Shown piece by piece: positions 31,585-59,359 of a stretch of DNA of 64,000 nucleotides. Position 1 is the stretch's first letter. Each line of letters starts with the position of its first letter. This DNA is from a virus: positions 1-64,000 of IMG/VR virus record IMGVR_UViG_3300012920_009134. One strand, given 5' to 3'. The notes beneath the pieces were generated by a model, which worked only from the letters and a program-made list of their open reading frames with translations, did no database searches and was not told the DNA's origin. A program made the position numbers and the translations under genes.

Positions 31585-31585
31585 A

Positions 31586-32293: not shown

Positions 32294-32306
32294 GAGAATG
32301 TGACTT

Positions 32307-33158: not shown

Positions 33159-34027
33159 GTAATAAAAAGATAATCGTGTTGGCGGCAGATCATAACGGCG
33201 TCGAAAGAAAGGCAGAGTTAAAAAAGTTTCTTTCAAGTGAGGGGTATTTTTGCATTGATCTAGGTCCTTATGTATCAAGCGAAAGCGTTGATTATGTTGA
33301 TTATGCAGATCAACTTTCAACTATTGTGTCTTCAGGCGAAGCGCCAAGAGGTATACTTATTTGTGGCACTGGAGTTGGCATGAGTATTGTAGCAAACCGA
33401 CATAAAGATGTCAGAGCAGTTCTTGCGCACAACTTTATGACAGCGAAGAAGTCACGAGAACATAACGATTCGAATGTTTTGTGTTTGGGTGCTTGGATAT
33501 CTTCTCAGGAAGACACAAATCAAATGACTCTTGATTGGGTAAATGAGTCATGGGGTGAAGGTAGACACGTTAAGAGAGTTGGAAAGATAGATAGACACAG
33601 TGGTATAGTTCTTACTAACGGCGTTTTCGATGTCTTGCATAAAGGTCACATAGAGTTGTTGAAGTTTGCAAAATCACAGGGGCAAAAGTTGGTGGTTGCA
33701 ATAGATTCTGATATCAGGGTAAGATCTATCAAAGGAGAGTCTAGACCTATCAATTCCGAAGAAGATAGAAAGAGGTTACTTGAGGCGATTGAGTTTGTCG
33801 ACGAGGTTTTGATTTTTAACAGCGAGTCGGACCTAAAACAACTATATGAAGAAATTGTCCCATCCTGTTTGGTTAAAGGCGGCGAGTGGACGGCAGATGA
33901 AGTTAGGGAGAGGGATGGTGTTAGTGATCAAATAGATATTAAAATATATCCCATATATGGAAATTACTCTACAACCAACACTTTGAGAAAAATTAAGAAC
34001 ATTGAGACAACTGAAAAAATACAATAG
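33155..34027 (+). CDS. Fusion: RpiB/LacAB sugar-phosphate isomerase + HldC/RfaE-II-like nucleotidyltransferase
   Basis: ADHNG, DYVDY, ICGTGVGM, HNDSNVL, GRH..R; then TNGVFDVLHKGH, KGESRPIN, KGG, YSTT. Confidence 0.88.
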   Translation: MSNKKIIVLAADHNGVERKAELKKFLSSEGYFCIDLGPYVSSESVDYVDYADQLSTIVSSGEAPRGILICGTGVGMSIVANRHKDVRAVLAHNFMTAKKSREHNDSNVLCLGAWISSQEDTNQMTLDWVNESWGEGRHVKRVGKIDRHSGIVLTNGVFDVLHKGHIELLKFAKSQGQKLVVAIDSDIRVRSIKGESRPINSEEDRKRLLEAIEFVDEVLIFNSESDLKQLYEEIVPSCLVKGGEWTADEVRERDGVSDQIDIKIYPIYGNYSTTNTLRKIKNIETTEKIQ

Positions 34028-34877
34028 AAAAGTTTTATTGATAGGGGATACCATAGTAGATAAGCACGTATATTCTACTGTCTCCGGTTTATCTTTAGAG
34101 TCTCCAACCGTTAAGTGCAATTTCAACAAAGAAGTCATACAACTTGGAGGGGCAGCAAACGTTGCCAAGCACATGAGTCACCTCTGTAGTGAAGTTACCT
34201 TTGTAACTTCGATGAATCCTTCCTATAATGTGCCTGGAGTAAACACAATAAATATAGAAAGTGACACATACAATACGAAAACAAGACATTGGATATCTCG
34301 TGGAGATCACACTTACAAGTACCTACAGATAAACAACACCAATCAGAATGATTTGAAATATAGTTTACAGGATCTTGTAATCGAAGAATACGATGTCCTT
34401 GCTATATCTGACTATAGGTGTGGGTTGGTGACGGATAATATTGTTGAAGAAATACTAAAAAATAAGTTTAGCAAAAAGAAATATGCTGCGTCACAAGTAT
34501 CTTCCAAAGAAAACAATTATGATAGATACCAAACATTCGACTGTTTTGTTATGAACAAATCTGAAGCAATGAGTTACACCAAGTCAGAGTTTCCTAATTT
34601 TAAGTCTTTTGCAGATCTTAAAGCGAAAACAGTGTATGTAACAATGGGTGCAGAAGGTTGTACACTGTATAACGCATCTGGATTTCACCACTTTCAGGGT
34701 AAGATTGCATCTGTGAGCAATACCATAGGGGCAGGAGATGCTTTCTACGCAGCGTTGTTATCTTCTGGTGGAGATGTTAACTTTGCAAACAGATGGGCAT
34801 CCTACTATGTATCTAGAAATATAGATGATGAGGTGACCTTAAGAGGGATGTTTGAATATGAAGAAGCAGTGCGTTGA
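34002..34877 (+). CDS. PfkB/ribokinase-family kinase, HldA/RfaE-I-like
   Basis: IGDTIVD, LSLESP, GGAANVA, ISDY, NTIGAGD. Confidence 0.85.
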   Translation: MRQLKKYNRKVLLIGDTIVDKHVYSTVSGLSLESPTVKCNFNKEVIQLGGAANVAKHMSHLCSEVTFVTSMNPSYNVPGVNTINIESDTYNTKTRHWISRGDHTYKYLQINNTNQNDLKYSLQDLVIEEYDVLAISDYRCGLVTDNIVEEILKNKFSKKKYAASQVSSKENNYDRYQTFDCFVMNKSEAMSYTKSEFPNFKSFADLKAKTVYVTMGAEGCTLYNASGFHHFQGKIASVSNTIGAGDAFYAALLSSGGDVNFANRWASYYVSRNIDDEVTLRGMFEYEEAVR

Positions 34878-35547
34878 TGCGAACAAGAAAATAAAAGAAC
34901 TAGGATTAGTAAAACTTACTTGGGGAAATGTCTCATTGTTGTCCGAATGCGGCACTTTAGTTTACATCAAACCATCCGGAGTGGCATTTGAAACAATGGT
35001 TGAGGATGATATATCCGTTGTTAATCTAAAGACCGGCGAACTTTTGGAAGGAAAGAAGCAGTCTGTAGACACAAACATACACCTTGAAATATACAGAGAA
35101 TTTGATGACGTCAAGTCGATAATACATACTCACTCAAAGTATGCAACGTCACACGCTCAAGCTCAAACACCGATAAGGTGCTTGGGAACAACACATGCAG
35201 ATTATTTTGATGGCGACATTCCTGTAACTAGAAATTTGACAAAGAATGAAATTGCAACAAACTATGAAATGAATATAGGAAAGTGCGTTGTAGAGTGGTT
35301 TCAGGAGAACAAGAGTCTTCCGACACGAAAAGGCGCAGTTTTGTTGCCTAGTCATGGAGTCTTGACGTTTGGCAAGTCTGCAGATCAAGCACTAGAAAAT
35401 GCTATAGTATTAGAAGAAGTGGCCGAAATGAATATATTATCCAACATGTTGAATAGTTCTATTGCCATCGGTCGCCATAAGCAACAACTTTTTAAAAAAC
35501 ACTATGATAGAAAAAATGGAGTTAACAAATATTATGGTCAAGGATAA
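34858..35547 (+). CDS. araD: L-ribulose-5-phosphate 4-epimerase (class II aldolase fold)
   Basis: TWGNVS, IKPSGV, HTHS, GTTHADYF, HG, C-terminal HY.RK.G…YYGQ. Confidence 0.88.
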   Translation: MKKQCVDANKKIKELGLVKLTWGNVSLLSECGTLVYIKPSGVAFETMVEDDISVVNLKTGELLEGKKQSVDTNIHLEIYREFDDVKSIIHTHSKYATSHAQAQTPIRCLGTTHADYFDGDIPVTRNLTKNEIATNYEMNIGKCVVEWFQENKSLPTRKGAVLLPSHGVLTFGKSADQALENAIVLEEVAEMNILSNMLNSSIAIGRHKQQLFKKHYDRKNGVNKYYGQG

Positions 35548-35953
35548 TGAGTTTGGAATAAAGAAACTACCAGAAGTACAAAAACCTATTTTACACAAAG
35601 ATAAATATTGGGGATATATAACCTCTGTTTATGCAGATGATGATTTTACATTAAAAAAGATATTCATGAAAAAGGGAAGTCAAAGTAGTATGGAGTATCA
35701 CTGTAAAAAAGACGAATATTACTACATCTTTTCTGGTAAACTTAAGGTAGGTTTTAGGATAGGTCGTGCAAAAAATACTTCTCTGATCATGGAAGAGGGG
35801 GATGTTATACATCTAAAACCTGGTCTTATGCATATGAGAATGGCATTAGAAGACACAATTATTATAGAATGGTCTAATAAGGATGATGATTCTGACTCGC
35901 ACATCGTAGAAGATGGGAAAACATACATACACATAGATGATGAGGAAATATGA
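35534..35953 (+). CDS. Cupin (sugar isomerase-like)
   Basis: KYWG, SMEYHCKKDE, PGLMH. Confidence 0.75.
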   Translation: MVKDNEFGIKKLPEVQKPILHKDKYWGYITSVYADDDFTLKKIFMKKGSQSSMEYHCKKDEYYYIFSGKLKVGFRIGRAKNTSLIMEEGDVIHLKPGLMHMRMALEDTIIIEWSNKDDDSDSHIVEDGKTYIHIDDEEI

Positions 35954-36627
35954 GAAAACTATACATTGATACAGCAAATCTAAAAGATATAAAAAAGATA
36001 AACTCTTTGGGAGTAATTCAAGGAGTGACCACAAACCCCAGTCTTATCTCTAAAGAACCAAAGCAAAATTTTGATGCTCTTATTGAGGATTTGGCAAGGT
36101 TTTGCGACAAGGCAAAACTGTCTTTAAGCGTCGAGGTATTTGCCTCAGAACCGGATGAAATGCTAAACCAAGCGCGTGATATCCATGCTTCTTTGACTAA
36201 GATAATCGATCCATCTTTGTTGAGGATAAAGATTCCTGTTGGGTTTGAAGAGTTGAGGGTAATAAAAGAACTGTCTGGTGATGGTATAAGCGTAAACTGC
36301 ACCTGCTGTTTTACCGAACAGCAGATGCAACTTGCAGCAATGAGTGGAGCAAAGTATGTATCTCTATTTTACAGTAGATTAAGAGATACATCGGGTAACC
36401 CGTCAGAAGTGTTAAGAAGAACTAGACAGTTTATCGATGATAATAATCTCGACTGTGAAATCATCGCCGGTAGCATAAGGTCTCAGGGAGATGTATCGGG
36501 TGCCTGGGCGAATGGGTGCGATATAGTAACTTGTAGTACAGCGATTATTAAGAGTATGACTAGTCACCCCAAGACAGACTCTTCTGTAGAAGGGTTTTTA
36601 AAAGATTTTAACAACTGGATTAAGTGA
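35950..36627 (+). CDS. talC: Transaldolase, short TalC/FSA family
   Basis: IDTA, GVTTNPSL, Schiff-base IKIP, NCT, GSIR; Glu (VEV) and Phe (SLF) suggest transaldolase rather than FSA. Confidence 0.88.
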   Translation: MRKLYIDTANLKDIKKINSLGVIQGVTTNPSLISKEPKQNFDALIEDLARFCDKAKLSLSVEVFASEPDEMLNQARDIHASLTKIIDPSLLRIKIPVGFEELRVIKELSGDGISVNCTCCFTEQQMQLAAMSGAKYVSLFYSRLRDTSGNPSEVLRRTRQFIDDNNLDCEIIAGSIRSQGDVSGAWANGCDIVTCSTAIIKSMTSHPKTDSSVEGFLKDFNNWIK

Positions 36628-36628
36628 T

Positions 36629-36955
36629 ATGATTTATTGCTTTGATATTGATGGTACCGTGTGCACACCCTACAGCGGTGACTATGAAAAATCTCAACCA
36701 ATAAAAGATAGAATTGAAAAGGTCAATCAACTCTATGATGAGGGCAATACCATATTCATGCTAACTGCTAGAGGTATGGGTAGGACTGACAACGATCAGA
36801 TTGGTGCTTATAAATGTATGTATACGTTCACCGAAAACCAGCTAGACAAGTGGGGTGTTAAGTATCATAAGTTGTTTTTGGGCAAACCTAACGCAGATCT
36901 CTACATAGATGATAAGGGAATGAAAGATTTAGATTTCTTTGGTGGCGGTGAATGA
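36629..36955 (+). CDS. Small cap-less HAD phosphatase
   Basis: FDIDGT, TARG, GKP, YIDDK. Confidence 0.85.
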   Translation: MIYCFDIDGTVCTPYSGDYEKSQPIKDRIEKVNQLYDEGNTIFMLTARGMGRTDNDQIGAYKCMYTFTENQLDKWGVKYHKLFLGKPNADLYIDDKGMKDLDFFGGGE

Positions 36956-37857
36956 AGGTATACATCAATAGACAACCAAAACACGGACCTTGGGGCGGAG
37001 GTGCTAAGACAGTTAATAAACTTGTAGAACTACTACTACACAAGGGTCATACTGTTGTCTACGAACTTCAAGAAGGTATTGATGTTATCTTTTGTATGGA
37101 TCCTCGACCAAATCATAGAGGCGAATGGTATCAACATTTTTTAGATTATAGGTTTGAAAATAAAAACACTAAAATAGTGCAGCGAGTAGGGGACGTTGGT
37201 ACTCACTCAAAACCACATCTAACTGATATGGTAAGGCAGACTCTACCACATTCAGATCATTTTATATTTCCTAGTAAATGGGCCAAAGAGTGGATAGGTT
37301 TCGAATCAGAAAACTTCGATATAATCAATAATGCCCCAATGCAAATATTTTATGAAAACAGAAAACTAGACCTAAAACTATCAGAACAAGTTAGTGTTGT
37401 TACGCACCATTGGTCTACCAACCCTAAAAAGGGATTCGATATATATCAAAAATTTGAAGAATGGTGCAAGGATCAAAATATTAGTTTTCACTATATTGGA
37501 CAAGTCCCACCAGGAGTTGTTTTTGAAAACTACACAAAACCAATATCAGCAGAACAACTTTCTGTAGTTTTACCAAAACATGACATATATTTAACCGCTT
37601 CACAAGAAGAAGCGGGTGCCAACCATGTCCTGGAAGCACTTGCAGTAGGACTTCCGGTAGTTTACAGAGATACCGGAGGCAGCATAAATAACTATTGCCA
37701 TCCTTATGGAGAAGAATATTCTACTTTTGATGGTATGGTTGATAAAGTGCAGAAGGTTATAGGGCATTATGATACTTACAAAAGTGAAGTATTAAAGTAT
37801 GTCGACAACAATGATAACGTTATTGAGAGATATTGTGACATTATAGAGAAAATCTAA
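36952..37857 (+). CDS. Glycosyltransferase, GT4-like
   Basis: GPWGGG, KKG, EAGANHVLEALAVGLP. Confidence 0.8.
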   Translation: MKVYINRQPKHGPWGGGAKTVNKLVELLLHKGHTVVYELQEGIDVIFCMDPRPNHRGEWYQHFLDYRFENKNTKIVQRVGDVGTHSKPHLTDMVRQTLPHSDHFIFPSKWAKEWIGFESENFDIINNAPMQIFYENRKLDLKLSEQVSVVTHHWSTNPKKGFDIYQKFEEWCKDQNISFHYIGQVPPGVVFENYTKPISAEQLSVVLPKHDIYLTASQEEAGANHVLEALAVGLPVVYRDTGGSINNYCHPYGEEYSTFDGMVDKVQKVIGHYDTYKSEVLKYVDNNDNVIERYCDIIEKI

Positions 37858-37858
37858 T

Positions 37859-38557
37859 ATGAAAGTTAATATAAGCATAGACGATGTAAGTCCGCACCCT
37901 TTTTCATCCACAAGAGTATTGGAGAGGTGTGGAGAATTAATAGAAGTATTTCCAGATATTAAGTTTTCTTTGTTTATTCCCCTTGCTTATTGGAGAACAA
38001 TGAAATCGGGAACAACCACAGCAAAACCAATGTACATTTCTGAGTTTCCAGAGTTCTGCGAAACTATACTTGAACTTCCAGAACAAAACTACGAGATAGG
38101 TTTTCATGGGTATTATCATGGAATCCCCGGTAAAAGTGATAATGATGAGTTTCAGTACTTGAATTATGATGACGCACTTGTTAAAATAGATCTGATGTTC
38201 GATGAGGTGGATAAGGCAGGTTTGCAGAATAAGTTTAGAAAAATATTTAGACCACCAGCGTGGCGGTTAAGTCCAGACTCATTTAAAGCACTGTCTGACA
38301 GGGGGTTTGAAGTGTTTGCATTAACTGATCTGCCTTATACAAGAGAAGTGTATGCCGGAGAAGAGGACAATCATCCATGTACTTATTCCAATCAATTTCC
38401 TCCATTTAAAGATCTACACGTAGAAGATAAAGCAGGTATTGTGTATCATGCTTGTGAGTGGGATAAGAACTTTCTTACTATAGAAAAGTCTCACGATTTA
38501 ACAAACTTTCTTGAAGACAAAGAGAAAACGTTCGTATTTCTAAAGGGATTGTTGTAA
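37859..38557 (+). CDS. Polysaccharide deacetylase (CE4/NodB-like)
   Basis: SIDDV, HGYYH, FRPPAW, late H. Confidence 0.8.
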   Translation: MKVNISIDDVSPHPFSSTRVLERCGELIEVFPDIKFSLFIPLAYWRTMKSGTTTAKPMYISEFPEFCETILELPEQNYEIGFHGYYHGIPGKSDNDEFQYLNYDDALVKIDLMFDEVDKAGLQNKFRKIFRPPAWRLSPDSFKALSDRGFEVFALTDLPYTREVYAGEEDNHPCTYSNQFPPFKDLHVEDKAGIVYHACEWDKNFLTIEKSHDLTNFLEDKEKTFVFLKGLL

Positions 38558-39261
38558 TGGGAATGACAGATGGGTATTTGATTCCAAAAATGCCTCAATA
38601 TATAGCAAAAAAGATTAACAGTCTAGATAGTGGTTCAAGAATCGCATGGTTAGGTCAAATTCATCCTGATATGAATGACACATGTGATATGTACAAGGCA
38701 ATAATGAATCTTGTTGAGGTTGAAGATTTAAGGTGTGACTTTTACGATCTGAATAATGATGACAGCATTGCTGAAAACTCTTATGTTTGGGATGTGAATA
38801 CTGAATGGGATTTTACAGGTTACGATATTATTGTTGCAGTGAGGATATTTTATGCCTGTAACTCTGCTAGTCAGTTAATAAGGAACATTAAAAAAATGGT
38901 ATCTACGGAACAAAACATAGTAGGTGATTTGATGTCCGGTAACACCGGTGCTCACATAACAAATCCAGAATCTGGTATTTATCGCCAGTATTACTCTACG
39001 ATGGTAGAGGATTGTGAAGTTTTTATGAAACCAGCAAACAGCAAGGCAATCATTCCAATGCTTCCAAAGATGTGGATTGATCATGATATCAAAAATCCTG
39101 TCGGCAAATTCGGTTTCGGTGTAAAGCAAAACCACAAAGATCAAGTTTTGACAGAAGAGATGCTTGCAGAAAGCGGAATTAAAGTTACACCAATATCAGT
39201 TTTTAGAGAACCGACAAAATATAGAATATATTCAATATGTGAGTTTACAAATGACGTTTAA
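38557..39261 (+). CDS. Hypothetical protein, possibly a degenerate methyltransferase fold
   Basis: IAWLG, FYDL, WDVN, YDIIV pattern only. Confidence 0.35.
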   Translation: MGMTDGYLIPKMPQYIAKKINSLDSGSRIAWLGQIHPDMNDTCDMYKAIMNLVEVEDLRCDFYDLNNDDSIAENSYVWDVNTEWDFTGYDIIVAVRIFYACNSASQLIRNIKKMVSTEQNIVGDLMSGNTGAHITNPESGIYRQYYSTMVEDCEVFMKPANSKAIIPMLPKMWIDHDIKNPVGKFGFGVKQNHKDQVLTEEMLAESGIKVTPISVFREPTKYRIYSICEFTNDV

Positions 39262-40279
39262 CTTTTTGCTTAGAGAAATGACACACCTTAGATATTTTAT
39301 CCCGATTGTTGAAGAGGGTAATGCAAGAGGTGTTAAATCTAACTTCTATATCACGCATTCTGGAAAGTATAACTGCCCAACAATCCACCGTGATTTTCTT
39401 AACAAAATCAAAAAAAAATATAACATCGGAACTCTTGAAGAGTATGATCTAGAGTCTATCGAGGGATTTTGGTTTGCAAACGAATCATCTGGTTTAGATA
39501 TAACAAAAAAAGTTGCAACGCAAAAAAGCGCGAAAGTAATCATCACAACATATCAAACAGATTTTACACAGTGCTATCCCAAATATTCAGCAATAGCAGA
39601 TTACATTATGATGCCAAGTGAGAAAGTTGCTCAGTACTATAACCTTGAAGGTGAAAAAAATATTTATGTTGGTATACCAAAGTATGATATAGAAATTGAC
39701 TCAAGTAAGGTGTTGGAAAAGTATGGACTTGATCTCAACAGAAAGAAAGTTCTACTTATGTGGCCAAAGTCAAGAGATCTGGCAAAGTTTCCTATTGATA
39801 TAATAAGTAACTTCCAACAGTTAGGGTGGCAAGTTTTAGTAAAGGCAAGAGGAAAGGATCCAATATCTAAAAATACGGCAAACTACTTATTGTCTGGTGG
39901 ACATAAGTTTTTTTACGATGGTTGGTTTCCACACACTTCGCAAGAACTTTTGGAAGTGAGTGATTTAGTCGTAAACTGTGGATCTACAACGATTGAAGAA
40001 TGTGTTATGCACGAAGTTCCTTTAATCAATTTCGATATAAAACCGGAAGTACGTCATGGCAAAAAACAAAAACACAGAGTGACTCATGATTATTTGTACA
40101 ACTATAAATTCTGTATAAACATTCCATCGCTTAATAAAAACTTTAACACCGCAATGTTAAACGCCATGATTCAATCGCTACTACAGAAAGATCTAAAATC
40201 AGAGTTTAAAAAGTGTAAGCAAGAATGGTTGTATGATCATAAAAATACTTGTAAAAACTTATTAGATATGATACTATAG
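39251..40279 (+). CDS. GT-B transferase, TagB/TagF- or KpsS-like; candidate CMP-ulosonate transferase
   Basis: GIPKYD, SDLVV..GSTTIEE…P; adjacent to neuA/neuB. Confidence 0.55.
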   Translation: MTFNFLLREMTHLRYFIPIVEEGNARGVKSNFYITHSGKYNCPTIHRDFLNKIKKKYNIGTLEEYDLESIEGFWFANESSGLDITKKVATQKSAKVIITTYQTDFTQCYPKYSAIADYIMMPSEKVAQYYNLEGEKNIYVGIPKYDIEIDSSKVLEKYGLDLNRKKVLLMWPKSRDLAKFPIDIISNFQQLGWQVLVKARGKDPISKNTANYLLSGGHKFFYDGWFPHTSQELLEVSDLVVNCGSTTIEECVMHEVPLINFDIKPEVRHGKKQKHRVTHDYLYNYKFCINIPSLNKNFNTAMLNAMIQSLLQKDLKSEFKKCKQEWLYDHKNTCKNLLDMIL

Positions 40280-40283
40280 TGGC

Positions 40284-40835
40284 ATGAAAGTTGTTGCTAT
40301 TATACCTGCTCGTGGTGGTTCTAAAAGACTTCCAAGAAAAAATATATATCCTATCTGGGGAAAACCAATGCTCTATTGGTCTGTCTTGGCAGCAAAGCAA
40401 AGTAGATACATTGATGAAGTGTGGGTAACCACAGAAGATAAAGAAATAAAGAAAGTTGCTCTAGAATGCGGTGCCCGAGTTCACGATAGGGATCCGATAC
40501 TGTCTGGTGACAAGGTATATAAGATGGAAGCAATAAGAAGTTGTTTCGGTGATATTGATAACGGAGAGGATATAGTTATTTCATTACAGGCAAACTCTCC
40601 CGAAATGACCGGCGAAATACTTGACAGTGCCATTGATTCTTTTATACAAAACGATAGACACGAGTTATTGAGCGTTTCGCCAAACCTTATGCAGAATGCT
40701 GCTTTCAGAATTATGAAATCTTGGTATGTCTTTCAGAAAGATCTAAGTACCAAGTGCGGTGTGTTTGTTTGTGATATACACGACGTTCATACAAAGGAGG
40801 ATATTGAGATGATAGAAGAGAGGACCAACCGATGA
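40284..40835 (+). CDS. neuA: Acylneuraminate (ulosonate) cytidylyltransferase
   Basis: IIPARGGSKRLPRKN, QANSP, DVHT..D. Confidence 0.85.
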   Translation: MKVVAIIPARGGSKRLPRKNIYPIWGKPMLYWSVLAAKQSRYIDEVWVTTEDKEIKKVALECGARVHDRDPILSGDKVYKMEAIRSCFGDIDNGEDIVISLQANSPEMTGEILDSAIDSFIQNDRHELLSVSPNLMQNAAFRIMKSWYVFQKDLSTKCGVFVCDIHDVHTKEDIEMIEERTNR

Positions 40836-41545
40836 AGATTATTGTAGATCTTTGTAACCAACATTTTGGAAGTCTAGAAGAGTTAAAAAGAATGTCTTTG
40901 AATGCTTTTCTTTCTGGCGCTGATGCTGTAAAAATTCAACTTTTAGATTCTGAAAAACTATTAGGCACAACAGAAAAAAAGTATAGAGATATTTGCTTTC
41001 AAGATGCTTACGAGTTGTCAAAATATTGTGATGACATTGGCATTGAGTTTATGGCATCTGTATTCGATGCAGAGAGATTTGAGTGGTTGGAAGATCTTGG
41101 AGTTCAAATGCACAAGATAGCTAGCAGAACATCAAGGCGCGATAAGGCACTGTCCGAACTTATACTTTCAGATGGAAAACCCACAATCATATCAACAGGT
41201 ATGCATGATTTTGCAGAGTTTCCATTTGGACACTCTGATCAGATTGAATATTTGTTCTGTGTATCCAAATATCCTACATATCTAGATGATGAAAAACTAG
41301 CAAAAATGCCGCATTTTAAGCGCCCTGGTTACTCTGGGTACAGTGACCATACGATTGGCATCGCGGCAGCGTTACGCGCCCATTCTCGCGGCGCTACGAT
41401 ACTAGAAAAGCATTTTTCTAATAACCTTGGTGCCCAAACAAGACTGGAAGGCGGGCACATAGGGTCTTTTGATCAGGACTCATTAAGAAACTTTGTTAAT
41501 ATCGTAAAACAATTTGAGATTATGGAGAAGAAAAGTGAGTATTAG
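40832..41545 (+). CDS. neuB: NeuB-family PEP-dependent ulosonate synthase lacking the C-terminal SAF domain
   Basis: NQH.G, GADAVK.Q, KIAS, ISTGM, CVSKYP, GYSDHT, LEKHF. Confidence 0.85.
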   Translation: MKIIVDLCNQHFGSLEELKRMSLNAFLSGADAVKIQLLDSEKLLGTTEKKYRDICFQDAYELSKYCDDIGIEFMASVFDAERFEWLEDLGVQMHKIASRTSRRDKALSELILSDGKPTIISTGMHDFAEFPFGHSDQIEYLFCVSKYPTYLDDEKLAKMPHFKRPGYSGYSDHTIGIAAALRAHSRGATILEKHFSNNLGAQTRLEGGHIGSFDQDSLRNFVNIVKQFEIMEKKSEY

Positions 41546-42161
41546 GAATCCTGATGTATCGGTCATCATCACAAACTATAACTACGAAAAGTATATTGCT
41601 CGCGCTGTCAGGAGTTGTTTGAACCAATCTCATGTTAATCATGAAGTTATAGTTGTTGATGATTGTAGCACCGACGATTCTGTAAAGACCTTAAATCCAT
41701 TCAAGGAACAGGTTAAAATTATTTCTACTGGGACTAATGGTGGCGTTGCTGTTGCTGCAAATATGGGAGTTAGAGAAGCGAGAGGTCAGTTTTTTATTCG
41801 TGTTGATGCAGACGATTACGTTAACTCTGATATGTGTTATATGATGAAAACATACCTTGAGGCAAATCACGATGCCTTTTGTGTGTCATGTGATTATCTT
41901 ATGGTAGATAACTTTGAAAACACACTAGAAAGGAAGTATGCAGAAGTAGAAAATATATCATGCGGCATCATGTACCGAAGAGATCCTTTCCTCGCAGTTG
42001 GCGGGTACAACAACAAAATGAGACACAGAGAGGAAGAGGAACTTCGAAAAAGATTGGGACAAGACTATAAAATACATCATTTGAAGATTCCGTTTTATAG
42101 ATATAGGATGCATAACACAAACAAAACAAAAGAACCAGAATACAAAACGTGGGAGATATGA
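41535..42161 (+). CDS. Glycosyltransferase, GT2 family
   Basis: SVIITNYN, VDDCSTD, VDADD. Confidence 0.88.
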   Translation: MSIRNPDVSVIITNYNYEKYIARAVRSCLNQSHVNHEVIVVDDCSTDDSVKTLNPFKEQVKIISTGTNGGVAVAANMGVREARGQFFIRVDADDYVNSDMCYMMKTYLEANHDAFCVSCDYLMVDNFENTLERKYAEVENISCGIMYRRDPFLAVGGYNNKMRHREEEELRKRLGQDYKIHHLKIPFYRYRMHNTNKTKEPEYKTWEI

Positions 42162-42164
42162 AAG

Positions 42165-42851
42165 ATGAGTAAAAAGATTTTTATTACAGGGTGTGCAAAA
42201 TCAGGCACCACATTGTTACTGAGAATGTGTTATGCATTCAAGGACACGGAAGTTTTATACAGAGAGGGGTTTGACGGACACGAACTACCATTCAATGATT
42301 TCGTTGATCATAAAAGTGAAAACAAGTTTATTATTGGAAAGAGACACCCACCAGCACTTTTGAGTAACGTGTTGATTCCTGAATTCGCTGAACAGGCAGC
42401 AACCGTTATTTCACAAGACATTGCGATTATAAATGTTGTTAGGGATGGACGAGATGTAGTGCTCTCTGATGGCAACTATGTAAAACCAAGAAGATGGATC
42501 GATACTGTGAAACAGAGAGATAAAGAAGTGTTCGGTGCTTTGATCGATTTAGAAGTCAGGTATGAAGATTTAGTTAGAAATCCAGAGAAGATTCAAAAAC
42601 AAATGGAAGAGTTGTTTGGATTGGAGTCGGAACATAGTTTTGCAAAATATCCAGAGTACGTAGAAGATTGGGTCTACGAGTGGAATGTTTCTGTATTGGG
42701 TCGTGCAGGCAAGGGAAATGATTCTGATTATGGTAAACGAAAGTTGAGTGACAAAGGTGTTGGCAAAGACCCAGAAGCATATAAGGACATATGTTCAGAA
42801 CTGGAACTTCCTGAGTTTGAAAAATGTTTGAAGGAGTTGAGATACATATGA
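42165..42851 (+). CDS. PAPS-dependent sulfotransferase
   Basis: 5'-PSB GCAKSGTT, 3'-PB VRDGRDVVLS, RYEDLV..P. Confidence 0.82.
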   Translation: MSKKIFITGCAKSGTTLLLRMCYAFKDTEVLYREGFDGHELPFNDFVDHKSENKFIIGKRHPPALLSNVLIPEFAEQAATVISQDIAIINVVRDGRDVVLSDGNYVKPRRWIDTVKQRDKEVFGALIDLEVRYEDLVRNPEKIQKQMEELFGLESEHSFAKYPEYVEDWVYEWNVSVLGRAGKGNDSDYGKRKLSDKGVGKDPEAYKDICSELELPEFEKCLKELRYI

Positions 42852-43717
42852 GAGCATTGGTTACAGGTCATGAAGGATACATTGGCGGTAATTTTGTAAA
42901 AGAATGGGTGAAGAGAGGTCATGAGTATCTTGGATATGATATGAAGAATAATCATGAGTTTGATCTCTCAAAAAGAATAAAAGAACTTTACATTAATCAC
43001 AAAAACAAACCTATTGATGTTGTGATACATTTTGCTGCTATACCGAGAGTTGCTTTTAGTGTAGAACAACCAGTTTATGTTATGAATAACAATATAAACT
43101 CGACAACTAGAGTGTTGAATTGGGCAAAAAAAGAAAATATCCCAGTTGTTTATAGTTCGTCTTCTTCTGTTGTCGGTAACGGAACTGGTCCCGCTAGTCC
43201 ATACGCGCTGTCTAAGTATGTTGGAGAAATGGAGACCATACTGTATAATCAGTTATATGGTCTTAAGACTGTAGCGTTGAGATATTTTAATGTCTATTCT
43301 TACGACCAACAGGCAGACAGTGAGTATGCCACTGTTGTATGCAATTGGAAAAAGTTCATTACAGAGGGTCGGACTCCTTTTATTACCGGTGATGGAGAGC
43401 AGAGGAGAGACATGACTCATGTTGACGATATCGTTTCAGCAAATATTTTCTGCGCAGAGAACATTGATAATGATGAACTTTGGGGGCACTGGTATGATAT
43501 TGGATCTGGTGAAAACATTTCTTTAAATGAATTGAAAGAAATTGTGTTACAATATTTCCCAGAGCAAAGATTTGACTATATAGACCCCAGACCAGGAGAT
43601 GTAATGTATACTGAGGCAGATTTGTCTAAGTTCAAAGCACATGGGTGGGAAAGCAAGGTACGACTTCAAGAAGGTCTAAATCTTGTTTATAAGACATTAA
43701 AAGAGGAGTTGGGATAA
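42848..43717 (+). CDS. NAD-dependent nucleotide-sugar epimerase/dehydratase
   Basis: TGHEGYIG, SSSSV, YALSK, LRYFNVY, GDGEQRRD. Confidence 0.9.
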   Translation: MRALVTGHEGYIGGNFVKEWVKRGHEYLGYDMKNNHEFDLSKRIKELYINHKNKPIDVVIHFAAIPRVAFSVEQPVYVMNNNINSTTRVLNWAKKENIPVVYSSSSSVVGNGTGPASPYALSKYVGEMETILYNQLYGLKTVALRYFNVYSYDQQADSEYATVVCNWKKFITEGRTPFITGDGEQRRDMTHVDDIVSANIFCAENIDNDELWGHWYDIGSGENISLNELKEIVLQYFPEQRFDYIDPRPGDVMYTEADLSKFKAHGWESKVRLQEGLNLVYKTLKEELG

Positions 43718-44583
43718 TGAAGTTAGGTATTATTGGAAATGGTTTTGTTGGTAACGCAATTGCACATGCTTTTATTCCATGCATGGAGGTAAAGATATAT
43801 GACAAAAATCCAGATAAGTGCTTTAACGAACTTGCTGATGTTGTTAATGATTCAGATGTGGTGTTCATATCGGTTCCAACCCCAATGACTCAAGAGGGGT
43901 TGATAGACTTGTCGATTGTACATGGCGTCTTTGAGGAAATCGAGTCTGTCAAGACTAATGAATCTAGACCTATTTTTGTTTTAAAATCAACAGTTGTACC
44001 AGGTACTACGAGAAAAATAAAACAAAAACATCCCAATTTGCAGATCGTTTTTAATCCTGAGTTTTTGACAGAGCGACATGCTCGATTCGACTTTTTGAAT
44101 CAAAGCAGGATTGTTCTTGGTTTTGAGGAGGATCTTCAACCTGGACAAAGAAATCTTACAGTTGATAAGGTTAAGAAACTGTATGATCTTAGGTTTTCTG
44201 GAAACAACTTTATTACAACAAATTACGAGACGGCAGAAATGATTAAGTATTTTAATAACCTCTTTTTTGCGGTAAAGGTATCTTTTATGAACGAAATGAA
44301 GTTAGTTGCAGACAAACTTGAAACAGTAAACTGGGACAAGGCGGTAAGGGGTTTTGTTTCGGATGGGCGCGTGGGAGATTCGCATTTGCAAGTCCCTGGT
44401 CCAGATGGTAAGTGTGGTTTTGGTGGTTCGTGTTTCCCTAAAGATATAAACGCATTCATGACATTTGCTGATTCTATTGGATTAGATTTGGCAGTGTTGA
44501 AGGGTGCGTGGAAAACAAATCTAAATGTAAGACCAGAGAAAGACTGGGAAAATCTAAAAGGAAGGGCAATATCGGATGACTAA
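43717..44583 (+). CDS. UDP-glucose/GDP-mannose dehydrogenase family, lacking the C-terminal domain
   Basis: GNGFVG, VPTP, KSTVVPGT, NPEFL, GFGGSCFPKD; only 288 aa. Confidence 0.88.
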   Translation: MKLGIIGNGFVGNAIAHAFIPCMEVKIYDKNPDKCFNELADVVNDSDVVFISVPTPMTQEGLIDLSIVHGVFEEIESVKTNESRPIFVLKSTVVPGTTRKIKQKHPNLQIVFNPEFLTERHARFDFLNQSRIVLGFEEDLQPGQRNLTVDKVKKLYDLRFSGNNFITTNYETAEMIKYFNNLFFAVKVSFMNEMKLVADKLETVNWDKAVRGFVSDGRVGDSHLQVPGPDGKCGFGGSCFPKDINAFMTFADSIGLDLAVLKGAWKTNLNVRPEKDWENLKGRAISDD

Positions 44584-44974
44584 AAGAGCAATGTTTATTG
44601 GTAGATGGCAACCATTTCATAATGGCCATAAGTGGTTGATTAACCAAAAACTAGGAGAAGGCAAACCAATCTTGATCGCGGTTAGGGATATCCCACCAGA
44701 TGAAAAGAATCCGTTTACGACGGAGCAAACTGTAGAAATGATACAAAAGGTATACAGTGAACAAGATGTGGAGGTAGTTTGTATCCCAGACATTGAAAGT
44801 GTTAACTGGGGTCGTGGCGTTGGGTATGGACTTAACGAGCACGTACCACCACAGAACATTGGATTCATTTCGGCAACAGGAATCAGAAACAACATCAAGG
44901 ATGGTGTGGATTCTTGGCGAGAAAACGTAGATCCGTCCATCCAAGAGATGGTCGTAAGGTATTTAGGAGAATAA
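44576..44974 (+). CDS. Minimal HxGH nucleotidyltransferase (NMNAT/cytidylyltransferase-like); candidate sulfate adenylyltransferase
   Basis: GRWQPFHNGH, NPF, ISATGIR; directly upstream of APS kinase. Confidence 0.75.
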   Translation: MTKRAMFIGRWQPFHNGHKWLINQKLGEGKPILIAVRDIPPDEKNPFTTEQTVEMIQKVYSEQDVEVVCIPDIESVNWGRGVGYGLNEHVPPQNIGFISATGIRNNIKDGVDSWRENVDPSIQEMVVRYLGE

Positions 44975-44975
44975 A

Positions 44976-45518
44976 GTGAGCGGTATTTTTATACAAATGA
45001 CAGGAATGAGCGGTGCTGGTAAGTCTACTATGACTTTTCTTGCACAAACCAGACTCAGAGAAATGGGTCACAATGTAGAGGTGATTGATGGTGATGAGTA
45101 TAGGGAAGGATTATGTAAGGATTTGGGATTTTCAAAAGAAGACAGGAATACGAATATTAGGAGATTGTCTTTCGTTGGGAAGGTGTTGTCTAGAAATGAT
45201 GTGGTGTGTATAATGTCCGCTATAAATCCATACGACAGCGTCAGGAGAGAAGTTCAAGCAAACAATCCCTTGTCCAAAATAGTGTATGTTAAGTGTGAAA
45301 TAGACACACTGATAGATAGAGATCCAAAAGGACTATATCGAAGAGCACTTTTGCCAAAGGGTGATCCTGACCACATTCCAAATTTTACAGGTATTTCGGA
45401 TCCTTTCGAGGTTCCAAAGAATGCAGACTTGGTTATTGATACAGAAAAGCAAACTGTAGATAAATCAGTTGATGTGTTGGTGGATTTTATATTAAAAAAC
45501 TTAGGAGAAAAAAAATGA
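44976..45518 (+). CDS. cysC: Adenylylsulfate (APS) kinase
   Basis: TGMSGAGKST, DGD, LGFSKEDRNTNIRR, RDPKGLY, FTGISDPFE. Confidence 0.92.
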   Translation: MSGIFIQMTGMSGAGKSTMTFLAQTRLREMGHNVEVIDGDEYREGLCKDLGFSKEDRNTNIRRLSFVGKVLSRNDVVCIMSAINPYDSVRREVQANNPLSKIVYVKCEIDTLIDRDPKGLYRRALLPKGDPDHIPNFTGISDPFEVPKNADLVIDTEKQTVDKSVDVLVDFILKNLGEKK

Positions 45519-50432: not shown

Positions 50433-53400
50433 ATGGCAAATAAAGAATATATATACACTTACACAAATACTTTTTATGAAGTCAACGGGGAACCGATAAA
50501 AGATCAGTATTCTTTTAATATTCCAAAGAGACAGGGAGATGAAGGTGCAGAAGTAGAAATACTCAAGATGTATTTAGGTATTGATTCTCAACCAGGTCAA
50601 AGCAGTGCTCTGTTCGACGCTGAACTTATTAATCGAATTCGTATTTGGCAAAATGACCACTTAGAGGATATCGCTGCTGAGTCTGGTGCAAACGTAAGAG
50701 TTGACCCAAGTTTTGGTCTTTTTGATATAGACTTGGGTGTTGCATTTGTCCTTGAGGAGCAAGGATATTTAGGCGAGTTTACTTACAAGGCAATGATTAG
50801 AAAGGGTTTTGCTGTCGCTGCAAAAGAATATCTTGAATCTGAATATTGGGCGCGTACGTACCTAGAAGAAACTGTTGGTGGTCTAATGTCGTCTGACTAT
50901 GGATTTCCAACACAAAATGACGCGGTTCAACAAGAACCCAGATATGCCAATAAGAGTTGGATCGAGTATAGATACGTTACAAACTATGCTGCGAATAATG
51001 TCGAAGGCGAAATATCAGAAAGATTAGATATATTGTCAGAAGCAGCAAGAGACGCAGTTAACCAAGTGTTTGACTTTTATGGTAAACCTAAAACTTGGGT
51101 AGTTACGGGCGTCACACAAAAAGAAATGGAAGGAGAGTTTAATTACATAGCAAACTATCAATCTCTTTTGAAAGATCAGGGTCGTATTGTTGATAAATTC
51201 CGCGAAGGTCAGAGATTCACATTTACGGTAGAAGATCCTGGAAGTGTGTATGAGCAATTAAACGGCACTAAGGTTGACATGCTTTTTGGTATGGACCTTT
51301 CAGTTAACTCTGGAGGAGTATCAGACGGATTTTGTATTATTAAAGAGATATCTCCACCTTCCTTGAGACCAACTTCAACCTATAATATAACTTTTTGGAT
51401 TAGTAGAACTTTCTTCGAACAAATAGAGGGAGGATCATTAACATCAGGTGGAACTTTTGATGTCACTGACCCAGACGTCTACCGAGAAGCGGCGCAGATA
51501 TACAGCGAAAAAAAACGACAAGCAAAAGAATTATATAAAAAGGCAGGCAGGGTTGTAGGTGATCTGAACGATCCTGGAAAAATGGCAAAGCAGGTTGACA
51601 AGTTTGCAAAAGGGCAATCCCGAAAAGCAACCGCTGCAGCACGAAATCTCGGAAATAATCTTTGGGATCAAGCAAGATCAGGTACCGGTGGACCTAGTGA
51701 TTTTGAACGTCAAGAAGCAACAAAAGAAGCACTAGAAGAGGCAGCATTTTTTGGTAGAGACATACCATCCTCGGTTAGGATTGAATTAAGAGACTTCAAG
51801 CAAATGATCGACGATGTTTCTGCAAAGTTAGAGGAATATCATGCCAACATACAGAAGTTTAAGGATGAAAACGACACTAGTAAATCACAGAGTAGGTTTG
51901 AGAAATCAAATAGACCCATAGTTCCAGATCTTGCGCCGAGGGAAGAGGCGCGAAAATTAAGAGAAGTATACGTCGCTCTTGAAGACTTTATGAGGGTCAA
52001 TGGTTATAGGTTAGCAGCATCTGCACCAGACAAGCAAGATAACTTAGTTATAAGTTTCGAACCAGTTCGAGGAGTTGTATATAAACCAGGAATACAAGAT
52101 CCATCTCTATCTCCAAACTTAGATGAGGTTACTGTAAATCCAACTGAAACAGGTGTTGAGGAAATAATCGGTTTTCAAATTTCTGACATCCAGTATACAG
52201 TTGATGTCGCTGAAGATTCTAATAGACCACTGCCTTCTGGCCGAACCCGTTTTAACAGAGATAACGGTAAGCGACCATTTGTATATCCTTCTACAATGGG
52301 ATATTTGGCACAACTAAATGACATTGCAGAATGGATTCAGCAAAATCCATGTGATGATTTAGAGCAGGGTAATCCAGCAGTTGTATTTTTTGCTCGCTGG
52401 CATTGGCCTGAAATATCATTTAATTTCACAACTAAGAAATCTGAGAGTATCATAAACTTAACAGAACCCTCAGTAACCTTGACAACAAGAAATGAAAGAA
52501 AGGGTGAAACTAAGGTAAGGACTGTCAAAAATCTTGTTGATCTAAAAGAAGCAGCAATACTAACTGCTAGAGACGAGATTAAAGAACAGAAAGCGCTGTT
52601 AGACGAAAATATCAAAGCAATAAAAGAAAGCACTTTGTTTGAGAAAAAGGGCAAGATAATAAACACTGCTGATGTATATCCGGACTTCGGTAAGATACCA
52701 TGCGACATTGAAAAGATGTGGGAAGAATTCTTAAATCAGTGGGACATGAGACTTGTTATGTGTGATTTGCAAAAATGTATTCCACAACTACCAAGATTCA
52801 ATCTCAAATTTGACTGGAAACTTCCAACACTGCCAAATATACCGACATTTGATCCTATGCACTTTGTACTACCTCAGTTGAGGATCGCAATAAATGATAT
52901 TATAATGTCTTTTATATGTAAGTTGATTCAGAGCATTTTAGACACAGTAAGAAGACCTGATTGTACAGAGTTGCTTGCTTTTGGTGCCCTTGTGTTGGAT
53001 GATGTTCTCGCTAAGGTGAATGCTTTTAGGAATGAAAGAAGGGCAAGAAGAAAGAATCCAGAAGAAGAACAGGCAGTTATTGATTCGGTCGGACAAGCAA
53101 ATGAAGCATTAAACGCTATGGGCGTCGTCGGTCCTGAGTTAAATTCGGATACGGGCGATCTATTGAATGCAATAAGTGCCGTGCTAACTCCAACAGAACT
53201 CTGTTCTCTCTTTGAGGGGCAAGCAAGTGATAATGTTTTGGGTATCGTACTAAAAGTTGTGCAGACTTCGACTTCTACACTTAAGGAATATTTAACAACC
53301 ATAGACGAAGTAGAAAAGTTTTTCTTCACTATCGGCACTGTTATATCACCAGAGATTTGTGATGCAATCAAAGAGTTAAGTGATATTGTCATATCTCAAG

Positions 53401-56400
53401 AACTTTGCACTACAGATAGGGATCTAAGAGCATTGCTTGAGGATGTTGGTGCAACCCCCGAACAAATAAGAGATGAGATGTCTGCCCTGGACCAAAAGAG
53501 GAAGATATTAAACGAACTTTCAAAGAAGGGGGACTTTTCAGGACTTTTGCCAGGGATGACACCCGCCCAGTTAGCAGAAGCAGGGTTGCCTGGACCCTAC
53601 AATAATGCATTTGCCAACAAAATGGTAAAGTATGGTGCAGCATCTATTTTTACAAACCTCAAAACCTATTATTCAATTGAGGCAGCGGCATTCCCGTCTA
53701 AATTTATTGATGAGATTTTTGAGATGGTAGAGCCTGGAACCGCAGGGTTCAATCCAATACATTACGCTAAGTATATATATTATAAAAAACTTTCAGACGA
53801 ATTAGCGGACAAACTCGAAGAAAACGAAAATTATCGTCCTAGAAGAATGGGGCGTCTCATTTCTGCAAAAGAGTCTTTTATCGTTCCATTTGTTGATTTT
53901 GAATCTGGTGTTACATCGTCCAGACCTGCAAGCGAAGTATACACACAGGAGTATGGAGTCGAGAGAATGTATCTTCCGTTCATGAGGGTTATGCCAGTTG
54001 CCAGCAGTACTGACGAAGGAAAGGTTGAATTATCTGAGTTTGCTGACTTGGTTGAAGAGAATGTCGTAGGTTATATGGAACGGTACGCAACAACCAAATT
54101 GGTTGTAACTCAAACCTTAAAGAACATTTTGGATTCTGATGTCTCTACTATGGTTAGAAAGTTTCCAAGTTTCGATGGTGCTTTAAGAGAGTTTCATGTT
54201 AGGTTAGCAACAGAAAGAACGGAAATAGAGCCATTTGACTTATCAGGATTGTCAAAAGCTTCGGTGGGTACTTCTGTGGGAATCACAGATTTGTCATTTT
54301 TCGACTCAGAAGTTAAGGATTGCTACAGATTTTCTTATGACATTCCGGGAACTAGAGAAATTATAACAAGAATATATAATGAAAAGATACCAGAGGAGTA
54401 TGTGAACTTTAGGTCCTCTGGTGTAGACGTTTTATCTTCAAGGCATAGGGATAAACTTTTGCGTCCTGGTGGATTTGCAACGTTGTTGATTCAAAAGTAC
54501 ACTGAGTTAGCAGAAGGTAATCCGGGACCAAATACTTTTACAGATTATTCAGACGGCAATGAAACAAATATGTTGCCTAAAATATTAGGATATATTGAAA
54601 ACCCCGACATGGACGCTGCCCGCGCTGCGTTTAATGCTGTCTTGGATGAGGAGGAGGGTAATTCTCTTGGAGAGTTGCTCCTTGCTTTGATCGTCGGCGC
54701 TATAGCGGCCGCCGGAGAGATACTTGAAACCTCTAATGGACAACCTCTTTATTCTTCCGTTGTGGATTCTTTTAACTTTCAGTTATCAGATATCACAAAA
54801 AATTCTAGATTCTTCAACGTTGATGCGATGTTGGAACTGGAAGATTCTCTGTCTTCAGAGTATAACGTAGACATAGATAGGGAATGTTATGTTAAGAATA
54901 GTAGTATTTTGGACTTTCAAGCAATGGTTGAAAGATTTGCGGAGAAGTTCAATGAAAAGATATCTGAAGCAAAACACGATCCAAGCGAGAGAGATTTTAA
55001 CAAGATGGGTCCTTATGAAGAGGCCGCAATAGAATCACTGTTCAAGAGTTACGTAGATTTTTATTGTTTAGAGATAATGTTTAAAAATATCTTTTTGTTG
55101 TCAGAAGTTGGAGCAAAAAGAATATTCAAATCAGAGTTTGTTATTGACTATATTGTCGATTCTATTGCAACTGAGATGCAAGGAAGTTTATTCAGTAGAA
55201 CAAATATAACCAAGTTTAACGAAATATTAAAATCAATAACCAAGTTAGACGACCCGAAAGAATCTATCAAAACCCTTGTTGTTAAAAACCTGGATGTAGA
55301 AGAAATGGCGTCTTTTATAGATGATATATATCAACCCAAATATTCATCATTCAAAGAGAGAGTGTATAATGAACTGGTAGATAACATGAAAGATGTACCA
55401 AGTACAGAAGATTATCCAAAAGTAACTGTCCTAACTGACATCAGCGCCCTTTCGGGTCCTCGCGATGCCTCTCGACAGGCAGCATTTTTAGAAAATTATG
55501 GAGGATTCCAGGATGTTCCAGTCTCGGCAAGATTGCCAAACTTGTACGACAAATTTAAATTCAAGGGATATTCTGAAGAATTGATAGAAAAAAAGATAAA
55601 CTCAGGACACTTTTGGGTAGAGAAATTCTATAGAATAGACAACTTTGCATCTTTTAGGGCGAAATATAACAAAATTCAGGAGTATGTTGCATTAAATCCT
55701 GCGTACAACAGACTTCAACCCTTGTCATCGCTCCATAAGGAGTACATATCACCTGAAGATCTAGAAAAGATGTTGTTTGGTTATCAGTCTTTCGATAAAC
55801 TTGAAGAATATAATCAAACTATAGAAAACAATCTAGAAAGGATTGAGACTGAGTACAAGTATATAAAGACTATATTTTTAGCGTTGCTCTCCAATTTTTA
55901 CACAGGTTCTTCATATAAGAAAGAATCTTTGGCGTCAAAGATTATGATTGATCTTGGCATGGCAGAAATGTCTGCAGAGACTGCAACAAGAAAAATCAGA
56001 ACCTGGAGACAAATCGAATCAGGAGTTCTTCATACGGTTGAAACTGTGCCGTATAATGATAATCAAATTGAAACAGATCTGGCATACAGAAATGGCAACG
56101 TAGATATCGAAGAACTATATAAGAGAATGAAATCTAGATTCGAGATCGGTAAAGCAGTTGCAAACGGACAAATAAATGGAGACAATCTTATATCTAAGTC
56201 GTGGGACACTATTCCGGATGATAACAAGCATGATACAGAATTTGGAACCCTTGCAAAACATTATGACTGGGTTAACTATTTTGATTTTCTTGTTCGTGGA
56301 GCAACAGATTTGTCAGTAGAAAGAAAATCTCAAATGATTGTAGATTGTTTGACTAGGTTTGTAGAACTCTCACACAACTGGGTACCCAGAAGGCAGTCAT

Positions 56401-58973: not shown

Positions 58974-59359
58974 TGTATGGGATAGGACCAAAACTACCAA
59001 TCAGATTTACTAAGCAGGGTACACCACTCAATACGCTTACTATCAGAGAGAATACGCAACAAAATTTGAAAAACTTAATCTTAACTTCTCCTGGTGAAAG
59101 AATAATGGATATTGATTTTGGCGTTGGACTTAGAAGATATTTATTTGAAAACAACACCCCTGTTGTACGACAAAAACTAGAAAACAGAATAATCGAACAA
59201 GTTGAGAGGTATATGCCGTTTGTTAACATAAAAGGAATTGATGTTGTATATTCTGATAACAACCCGAATGTAATGGACATAAAATTAAGATATGGAATAA
59301 GTGGTATTGCTTCTGAGGAATTATTGTCTCTATCACTAGATCCAAAAATAACTTCATAA
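58973..59359 (+). CDS. Baseplate wedge/sheath initiator, gp25/GPW family
   Basis: QNLKNLILTSPGERIMDIDFGVGLRRYLFE. Confidence 0.9.
   Translation: MYGIGPKLPIRFTKQGTPLNTLTIRENTQQNLKNLILTSPGERIMDIDFGVGLRRYLFENNTPVVRQKLENRIIEQVERYMPFVNIKGIDVVYSDNNPNVMDIKLRYGISGIASEELLSLSLDPKITS

Follow-up and report, generated by a model that had tools for sequence, protein, structure and literature searches.

The window analysed here is a stretch of 64,000 nucleotides, positions 1 to 64,000 of the IMG/VR virus record IMGVR_UViG_3300012920_009134. Five genes lie in a row on its plus strand at positions 42165-45518. They encode a sulfotransferase, an epimerase, a UDP-sugar dehydrogenase, a nucleotidyltransferase of the HxGH superfamily (hereafter NT) and the adenosine 5'-phosphosulfate (APS) kinase CysC (Table 1). 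An earlier note, made from the letters of this DNA, had listed the same five genes, and all of them were confirmed. The TAA stop codon of the NT gene ends at position 44974 and the GTG start codon of cysC begins at 44976, so that the 132-residue NT is separated from the kinase by 1 nt, as the note had also stated. The NT gene starts with ATG, and its first 8 nt lie within the 3' end of the dehydrogenase gene. The identical gene string recurs in about 10 independent IMG/VR contigs with protein identities of 55-90%, and the arrangement is therefore not a product of chance. The subject of this report is NT, a candidate for an ATP sulfurylase of minimal size.

Table 1. Genes of the module at positions 42165-45518 of the window
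Gene product	Length (aa)	Position	Strand	Family evidence
PAPS-dependent sulfotransferase	228	42165-42851	+	PF13469 37.7 bits (cut-off 27); PF00685 27.5 bits (cut-off 22)
NAD-dependent SDR sugar-nucleotide epimerase/dehydratase	297	42824-43717	+	PF01370 E 3.8e-43
Short UDP-glucose/GDP-mannose dehydrogenase family protein	288	43717-44583	+	PF03721 E 1.1e-22; PF00984 E 1e-21
HxGH nucleotidyltransferase (NT, P0001), candidate minimal sulfate adenylyltransferase	132	44576-44974	+	PF01467 30.1 bits
APS kinase CysC (P0002), GTG start	180	44976-45518	+	PF01583 E 9.2e-43
PAPS: 3'-phosphoadenosine 5'-phosphosulfate. SDR: short-chain dehydrogenase/reductase.

Synthesis of PAPS takes two enzymes, ATP sulfurylase and APS kinase. 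The kinase of the window is, judged by its family match and motifs, a bona fide APS kinase. It scores 165.4 bits on the equivalog model TIGR00455 (cut-off 138.7), and its P-loop GMSGAGKST and its DGD, NIRR and KGLY motifs are invariant across 13 viral CysC sequences (alignment A3). The earlier note had seen no sat or cysDN genes here. This holds well beyond the window: no match to Sat (PF01747) or to CysD/PAPS_reduct (PF01507) was found across the whole 99.7-kb virus record, and three relatives that carry NT have no Sat or CysD either (G107, 192.6 kb, 100%; G109, 190 kb, 100%; G108, 175 kb, 95%; CheckV completeness).

More than 3000 homologues of NT were found, mostly in marine metagenomes and on contigs of up to 196 kb; their public label is 'cytidyltransferase-like'. 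Co-occurrence and fusion with cysC, which the note had named as a check, gave a strongly positive result. A CysC homologue adjoins NT in 37 of 42 IMG/VR loci, in both gene orders (NT followed by CysC, and CysC followed by NT). The pairing persists at identities of only 31-39% to the CysC of the window and where the flanking glycan genes have been replaced. Several viral loci hold CysC and NT in a single open frame. A search for longer homologues gave 105 fusions among the matches listed (100 CysC-NT and 5 NT-CysC), with NT domains 49-72% identical to that of the window. The best 150 cluster representatives at 50% identity, drawn from 1.8 billion proteins, include 50 fusions (37 CysC-NT and 13 NT-CysC), which implies that the fusion arose repeatedly and independently. 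The CysC partners of NT score 165-267 bits on TIGR00455.

Homologues of NT with 52-67% identity also occur in cellular genomes, namely in Candidatus Dadabacteria, Pyrinomonadaceae/Blastocatellia, Saprospiraceae/Lewinellaceae, Saccharibacteria and Omnitrophota. Forty NT-bearing genomes from several phyla were surveyed. All 40 encode CysC, and 36 encode neither Sat nor CysD. The phylum of Dadabacteria and their kin, to which G001 belongs, was represented by 98 genomes; NT is encoded in 69 of these, Sat in another 15 and CysD in a further 9, with zero overlap; the other 5 have none of the three. CysC accompanies NT in 68 of the 69 genomes and Sat in 13 of the 15. Four Dadabacteria chromosomes (1.5-3.1 Mb) were checked for the rest of the pathway. 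They contain CysC (about 230 bits), a CysH-like PAPS_reduct protein, an NIR_SIR sulfite reductase and NadD over its cut-off, and no Sat and no CysD; the pathway is therefore without its first enzyme only. NT is a lone gene among housekeeping genes in Dadabacteria. NadD (TIGR00482) was over its cut-off in all five NT-bearing genomes tested, and NT is therefore not needed there for NAD synthesis. The Saccharimonadia repeat this pattern as a second, separate lineage: of 151 genomes sampled, nine contain CysC. Sat abuts CysC in five of them, and NT abuts CysC or is fused to it in two (the fusion is at L123); none of the nine has both Sat and NT, and none has CysD. A further group within the phylum of the Dadabacteria, with genomes of about 1 Mb (G093-G105), forms a third arm of the exclusivity among NT, Sat and CysD: CysD was found in 9 of these 13 genomes and no CysC at E≤1e-15, a gene content that suggests an APS-reductase route without PAPS.

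By its fusion and adjacency to CysC and its exclusivity with Sat and CysD, NT thus takes the place of the sulfate-activating enzyme in gene linkage as well as in phyletic distribution. It is likely that NT is a minimal ATP sulfurylase (EC 2.7.7.4) derived from nicotinamide mononucleotide adenylyltransferase (NMNAT). The more general proposal is likely as well: NT would represent a third class of ATP sulfurylase of about 130 residues that descends from NMNAT, acts as the sole sulfate activator in most Dadabacteria and in some members of the Candidate Phyla Radiation (CPR) and Acidobacteria, and is widespread in marine phages, where it would form a self-contained PAPS factory with CysC and sometimes a HAD phosphatase.

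NT carries the motifs GRWQPFHNGH, NPFT and ISATGIR. The first description of it as a small NMNAT-like HxGH protein was borne out by these motifs, by the profile match to NMNAT and by the fold. The match to the NCBIfam models of archaeal/NadM NMNAT spans only residues 3-74 and stays far under the cut-offs (PRK01153, 52.5 vs 127 bits; TIGR01527, 42.3 vs 181.2 bits). A profile built from 32 sequences of the NT family finds the NMNAT of Methanocaldococcus jannaschii (1f9a) at E 2.7e-17. The HMMER alignment of the family with 1f9a splits in two: roughly residues 92-107 of the NMNAT are unmatched, and GRG lies opposite NS.W. A near-invariant N(W/Y)GRGVGY in the NT family stands where NMNAT has ..NS.W... 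The missing central segment is presumably the place of the NMN contacts. We take Asn84 and Trp87 of the Methanothermobacter thermautotrophicus NMNAT to be such contacts, for which a literature search gave no confirming paper. Four motifs of the NT family are each kept in 97-98% of 314 near-full-length domains, the ATP-binding HxGH and ISxTxxR motifs in 98%.

The AlphaFold2 model of NT (pLDDT 95.7) is a single compact domain, unusually small, with three predicted strands. Its structural neighbours are NMNAT 1f9a (Z 14.1, rmsd 2.6 over 128 residues), phosphopantetheine adenylyltransferase (PPAT, Z 13.7), NadM (Z 12.6) and nicotinate mononucleotide adenylyltransferase (NaMNAT, about Z 11). Sat domains follow, with Thermus thermophilus 1v47 at Z 10.5 (22% identity over 125 residues) and other Sat at Z 7-9; the small cytidylyltransferases TagD, HldC and Fom1 are found at Z 6-8. 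With NMNAT, PPAT, NaMNAT and Sat all at Z 7-14, the fold search has no power to tell the substrate. Taken together, the profile matches and the model indicate that the NT family is a shortened offshoot of the archaeal/NadM-type NMNAT branch of the HxGH superfamily.

Several observations weigh against an ATP sulfurylase function. The enzymes closest to NT by sequence and structure are NMN and phosphopantetheine adenylyltransferases and not Sat. The NT of the window has no match to PF01747 at E≤0.01, and the 32-sequence family profile finds no Sat at E≤1; a relative of NT in locus L015 reaches 12.1 bits on PF01747. The family member P0304, with 23.8 bits, comes close to the cut-off of 24.3, which counts in favour of a sulfurylase. 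The hhalign comparison of NT (alignment A1) with five Sat catalytic domains is weak (probability 35%, E 4e-4). It pairs, in possible support of a sulfurylase, HNGH with HRAH, NWG-R-GVG-Y (R80) with NYG..GRDHAGVG..Y, and ISAT with LSGT; the QxRN of the Sat signature is absent in NT, and the parallel between GRGVGY and GRDHAG may be coincidental. Four of the 42 viral loci have no CysC near NT, and one further locus is cut at the contig end; in the exception L022, a HAD gene precedes NT and two Sulfotransfer_2 genes follow it directly, sulfotransferase neighbours that for their part speak for a sulfurylase. Other fusions join NT to HAD, DUF6717, DUF2061 and DHHA1 domains. Four of the 40 NT-bearing genomes have a sulfurylase as well (Sat in two, CysD in two). 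The exclusivity within the phylum of the Dadabacteria follows clades and may reflect very few evolutionary events, and some of the surveyed genomes are affected by the incompleteness of metagenome-assembled genomes. Finally, APS made by the host could feed the phage CysC without a sulfurylase of the phage.

NT as a truncated Sat was considered and rejected, with no PF01747 match and NMNAT clearly closer. The earlier note had proposed a stripped-down sulfate adenylyltransferase. Its sulfurylase role is supported by the fusion and adjacency to CysC and by the exclusivity with Sat and CysD, but the implied descent was not upheld, as NT appears to derive from NMNAT and not from a cut-down Sat.

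Three other functions were weighed. NT might activate a different phospho-acceptor for the surrounding glycan island, such as a sugar 1-phosphate, glycerol 3-phosphate or heptose phosphate (compare TagD and HldC), while CysC uses APS of the host. The position of NT within a glycan island of about 19 kb speaks for this, as does the breadth of PF01467, which also takes in enzymes of the TagD/HldE type; the best, sub-threshold match of the neighbouring epimerase is ADP-heptose 6-epimerase, and TagD, HldC and Fom1 are among the structural neighbours listed above. The link to CysC persists, however, in both gene orders and at loci with other glycan genes or with none, the fusions are to CysC and not to sugar enzymes, and the GRWQPFHxGH motif is of the NMNAT type and not of the TagD/HldE type. 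In Dadabacteria, moreover, NT stands alone in a housekeeping context, in genomes without any sulfurylase. We consider this explanation decidedly unlikely. It is highly improbable that NT is a genuine shortened NMNAT that rebuilds the NAD+ of the phage, as NadM/Nudix proteins do in other phages, with its place beside cysC incidental. Archaeal NMNAT/NadM do give the best sequence matches in NCBIfam and in the Protein Data Bank (PDB), 1f9a has the nearest fold, and a tblastn search with P0001 hits NadM-type NMNAT/Nudix proteins of many cultured phages. Against this stand scores far under the equivalog cut-offs, the central NMNAT segment that is missing or replaced in NT, the lack of a Nampt or Nudix partner nearby, and the presence of NadD in the bacteria tested. 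Fusion to APS kinase in both orders across dozens of clusters, and exclusivity with Sat and CysD, would not be expected of an NMNAT.

NT and CysC could also act jointly on another substrate or in another direction: on selenate, molybdate or oxyanions of the phosphite type, in the recycling of APS or 3'-phosphoadenosine 5'-phosphate (PAP), or on another 3'-phosphorylated adenylate, in the manner of PPAT and dephospho-CoA kinase. The logic of a nucleotidyltransferase followed by a 3'-kinase is common to the synthesis of CoA and PAPS, and PPAT is structurally as close to NT as NMNAT is. Additional phosphoester steps are suggested by the HAD, histidine phosphatase and DHHA1 domains found fused or adjacent. 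The divergent kinase-NT fusion of Xylella and Stenotrophomonas phages lies beside an NADAR gene and not beside sulfation genes, and the four viral loci without CysC point in the same direction. The partner kinases nevertheless score as true CysC, sulfotransferases are among the partners of NT, and the genomes in which NT replaces Sat or CysD retain CysH and sulfite reductase, enzymes that depend on APS or PAPS derived from sulfate. A joint function of this kind therefore seems quite improbable.

If NT is an ATP sulfurylase, it would convert ATP and sulfate to APS and pyrophosphate (PPi), and the translationally coupled CysC would phosphorylate APS to PAPS. In HxGH nucleotidyltransferases, Sat included, an oxygen of phosphate or sulfate attacks the alpha-phosphate of ATP. 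The retained HxGH, GR and ISATxIR motifs of NT (R10, H15, H18, S99 and R104) would bind ATP and stabilise this attack. The acceptor site of NMNAT would have been remodelled, with about 25 residues lost and the N(W/Y)GRGVGY loop in their place. The invariant Arg80 and the glycine backbone may hold the sulfate, and a glycine-rich loop would suit a small dianion. A coupled or fused CysC could draw the sulfurylase reaction forward against its unfavourable equilibrium. The sulfotransferase encoded three genes upstream would then transfer sulfate from PAPS to a glycan assembled by the enzymes of the surrounding island (dehydrogenase, epimerase, NeuB, CMP-sugar synthetase and glycosyltransferases). 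The dehydrogenase and the epimerase hint at a uronic-acid acceptor, which is a guess. A predicted-complex run with CysC (A3) and NT (A1) returned a score of 0.00; the predictor gave no answer, and the run speaks neither for nor against a complex.

The sulfotransferase contains CAKSGTT, which resembles the 5'-PSB motif, and RDGRDVVLS, which resembles the 3'-PB motif (compared by eye with the textbook motifs). Eight viral loci keep it in synteny. The top NCBIfam matches of the epimerase are ADP-heptose 6-epimerase and the UDP-GlcNAcA 4-epimerase TviC, both far under their cut-offs. The dehydrogenase reaches 175.3 bits on TIGR03026 (cut-off 189.8); only its N-terminal and central domains were matched in the family scan, and the usual C-terminal domain was not. 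Its syntenic relatives in phages are equally short (281-294 aa).

Partners of NT other than CysC were also recorded. One fusion of Sulfotransfer_2 to NT (P0191) was found in the search for longer homologues. Together with NT and CysC, a small HAD-type hydrolase is found repeatedly: as a CysC-HAD fusion followed by NT (L015:5048-5992), as a HAD gene followed by NT and two sulfotransferases (L022:5630-5998) and as a HAD-NT fusion (P0123). In the family scans, the HAD domains of these fusions matched only HAD-IIIA and capsule-phosphatase families, weakly and in a generic way. A role of HAD as a pyrophosphatase or PAP phosphatase was considered and found no support. Fusions of NT with DUF6717 are present in several clusters (P0190, P0252; E 1e-32 to 8e-34), and one of them (L034:5989-6750) lies beside a C5 DNA methylase without CysC nearby. 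The NT homologue P0383 (432 aa) ends in a domain that resembles DHHA1 (23.6 bits, under cut-off). A CysC-NT fusion in a Saccharibacteria genome (L123:8413-9108) is followed by a gene for a histidine phosphatase. The DHHA1-like domain of P0383 and this histidine phosphatase are candidate PAP phosphatases.

The module forms the 3' end of an island of about 19 kb with glycosyltransferase and sugar-nucleotide genes (window positions 26611-45518). Genes for a GT2 glycosyltransferase, NeuB, a CMP-sugar synthetase and more glycosyltransferases lie upstream of the module. The island is followed immediately by conserved small genes and the baseplate module, a position from which one could speculate that the glycan might decorate virion proteins. 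Baseplate-wedge genes lie downstream, and the source element is therefore classed, on its gene content, as an uncultured myovirus-like phage. Upstream of the island, at 23288-24604, lies the gene of a PhoH-like protein (phrog_2765, E 1.9e-112), which is common among the auxiliary genes of marine phages. Two giant open reading frames of 1900 and 2846 aa, at 16004-21706 and 50433-58973, have no PHROG match. The latter lies directly upstream of the baseplate-wedge genes at 58973-59359 and 59386-61173 and may encode a giant tail or baseplate protein. The whole virus record (G000) comprises 99,731 bases; CheckV gives it a completeness of 12%, yet its syntenic relatives are complete at about 192 kb. 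The 3.35-kb module had no blastn match among 50,697 phage records, and a search with NT (P0001) found no homologue of more than 60% identity in cultured phages.

To our knowledge, two types of enzyme, Sat and CysDN, account for sulfate activation. NT, if a sulfurylase, would add a third type that is three- to four-fold smaller. Genomes that seem to be without the first step of sulfate assimilation (most Dadabacteria, some Saccharimonadia and Acidobacteria) would actually be complete, and inferences on the sulfur cycle drawn from metagenomes would change. Thousands of marine viral genes labelled 'cytidylyltransferase-like' would become auxiliary genes of sulfur metabolism, and infection by many large marine phages would include phage-encoded synthesis of PAPS and the sulfation of glycans. 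NT would also provide a clear case of an NMNAT scaffold re-tooled for an inorganic oxyanion, and a compact enzyme for PAPS regeneration in biotechnology. A full-text search of the literature found no description of the NT family as a sulfurylase. Papers on cyanophages mention only 'cytidylyltransferase-like' genes of unclear function, which may be different proteins.

Among known enzymes, the archaeal/NadM NMNATs (MJ0541, 1f9a; M. thermautotrophicus, 1ej2; TIGR01527, PRK01153) are the best match to NT in both sequence and fold. The motifs GRxQPxHxGH, NPFT and (I/Y)S(A/G)TxIR are common to both. NT is about 35 residues shorter than archaeal NMNAT, and its partners are CysC and sulfotransferases, not NAD genes. 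A fusion that resembles the CysC-NT proteins is known from cultured phages of Xylella, Xanthomonas and Stenotrophomonas, in which a P-loop kinase (PF01583, 32-38 bits, over cut-off) is joined to an HxGH nucleotidyltransferase 31-38% identical to that of the window. The proteins of Xylella phage Bacata (CAA2367809.1; L001:4599-5339) and Stenotrophomonas phage DLP_6 (AAY80_227; L002:3593-4324) come from siphophages; each has about 245 aa and a degenerate P-loop domain that resembles APS kinase. The gene of Bacata is labelled 'adenylylsulfate kinase' or 'kinase', and stands beside a gene with an NADAR domain, with no sulfotransferase annotated nearby. The kinase-NT protein of these two phages may be a remote relative that serves a different function.

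Sat (PF01747; T. thermophilus 1v47, yeast 1j70) and NT are both members of the HxGH/HUP superfamily, and their folds are related. Both have CysC as a common genomic partner, including fusions, and their distribution is complementary. A parallel between HxxH, GRDHAGVG and LSGTxxR of Sat and the NT motifs is possible, as drawn from the weak hhalign alignment. At 350-600 aa, Sat combines a PUA-like domain at the N-terminus with a catalytic domain of about 220 aa, whereas NT is one compact domain of about 130 aa. CysDN catalyses the same reaction that is proposed for NT and is exclusive with NT in the phylum survey. Its fold is unrelated (an ATP pyrophosphatase of the PAPS-reductase-like type and a GTPase) and its reaction is driven by GTP, whereas NT has no GTPase partner. 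The bifunctional PAPS synthases (PAPSS1, 1x6v; Aquifex Sat-CysC, 2gks; CysN-CysC/NodQ) carry an APS kinase and a sulfate-activating domain in one chain, as do the NT fusions, and the commonest order in the latter, with the kinase N-terminal and NT C-terminal, is that of animal PAPSS. PAPS synthases activate sulfate via Sat or CysN/CysD; the NT fusions would do so via the NT domain of about 130 aa, and the phage of the window keeps NT and CysC as separate proteins.

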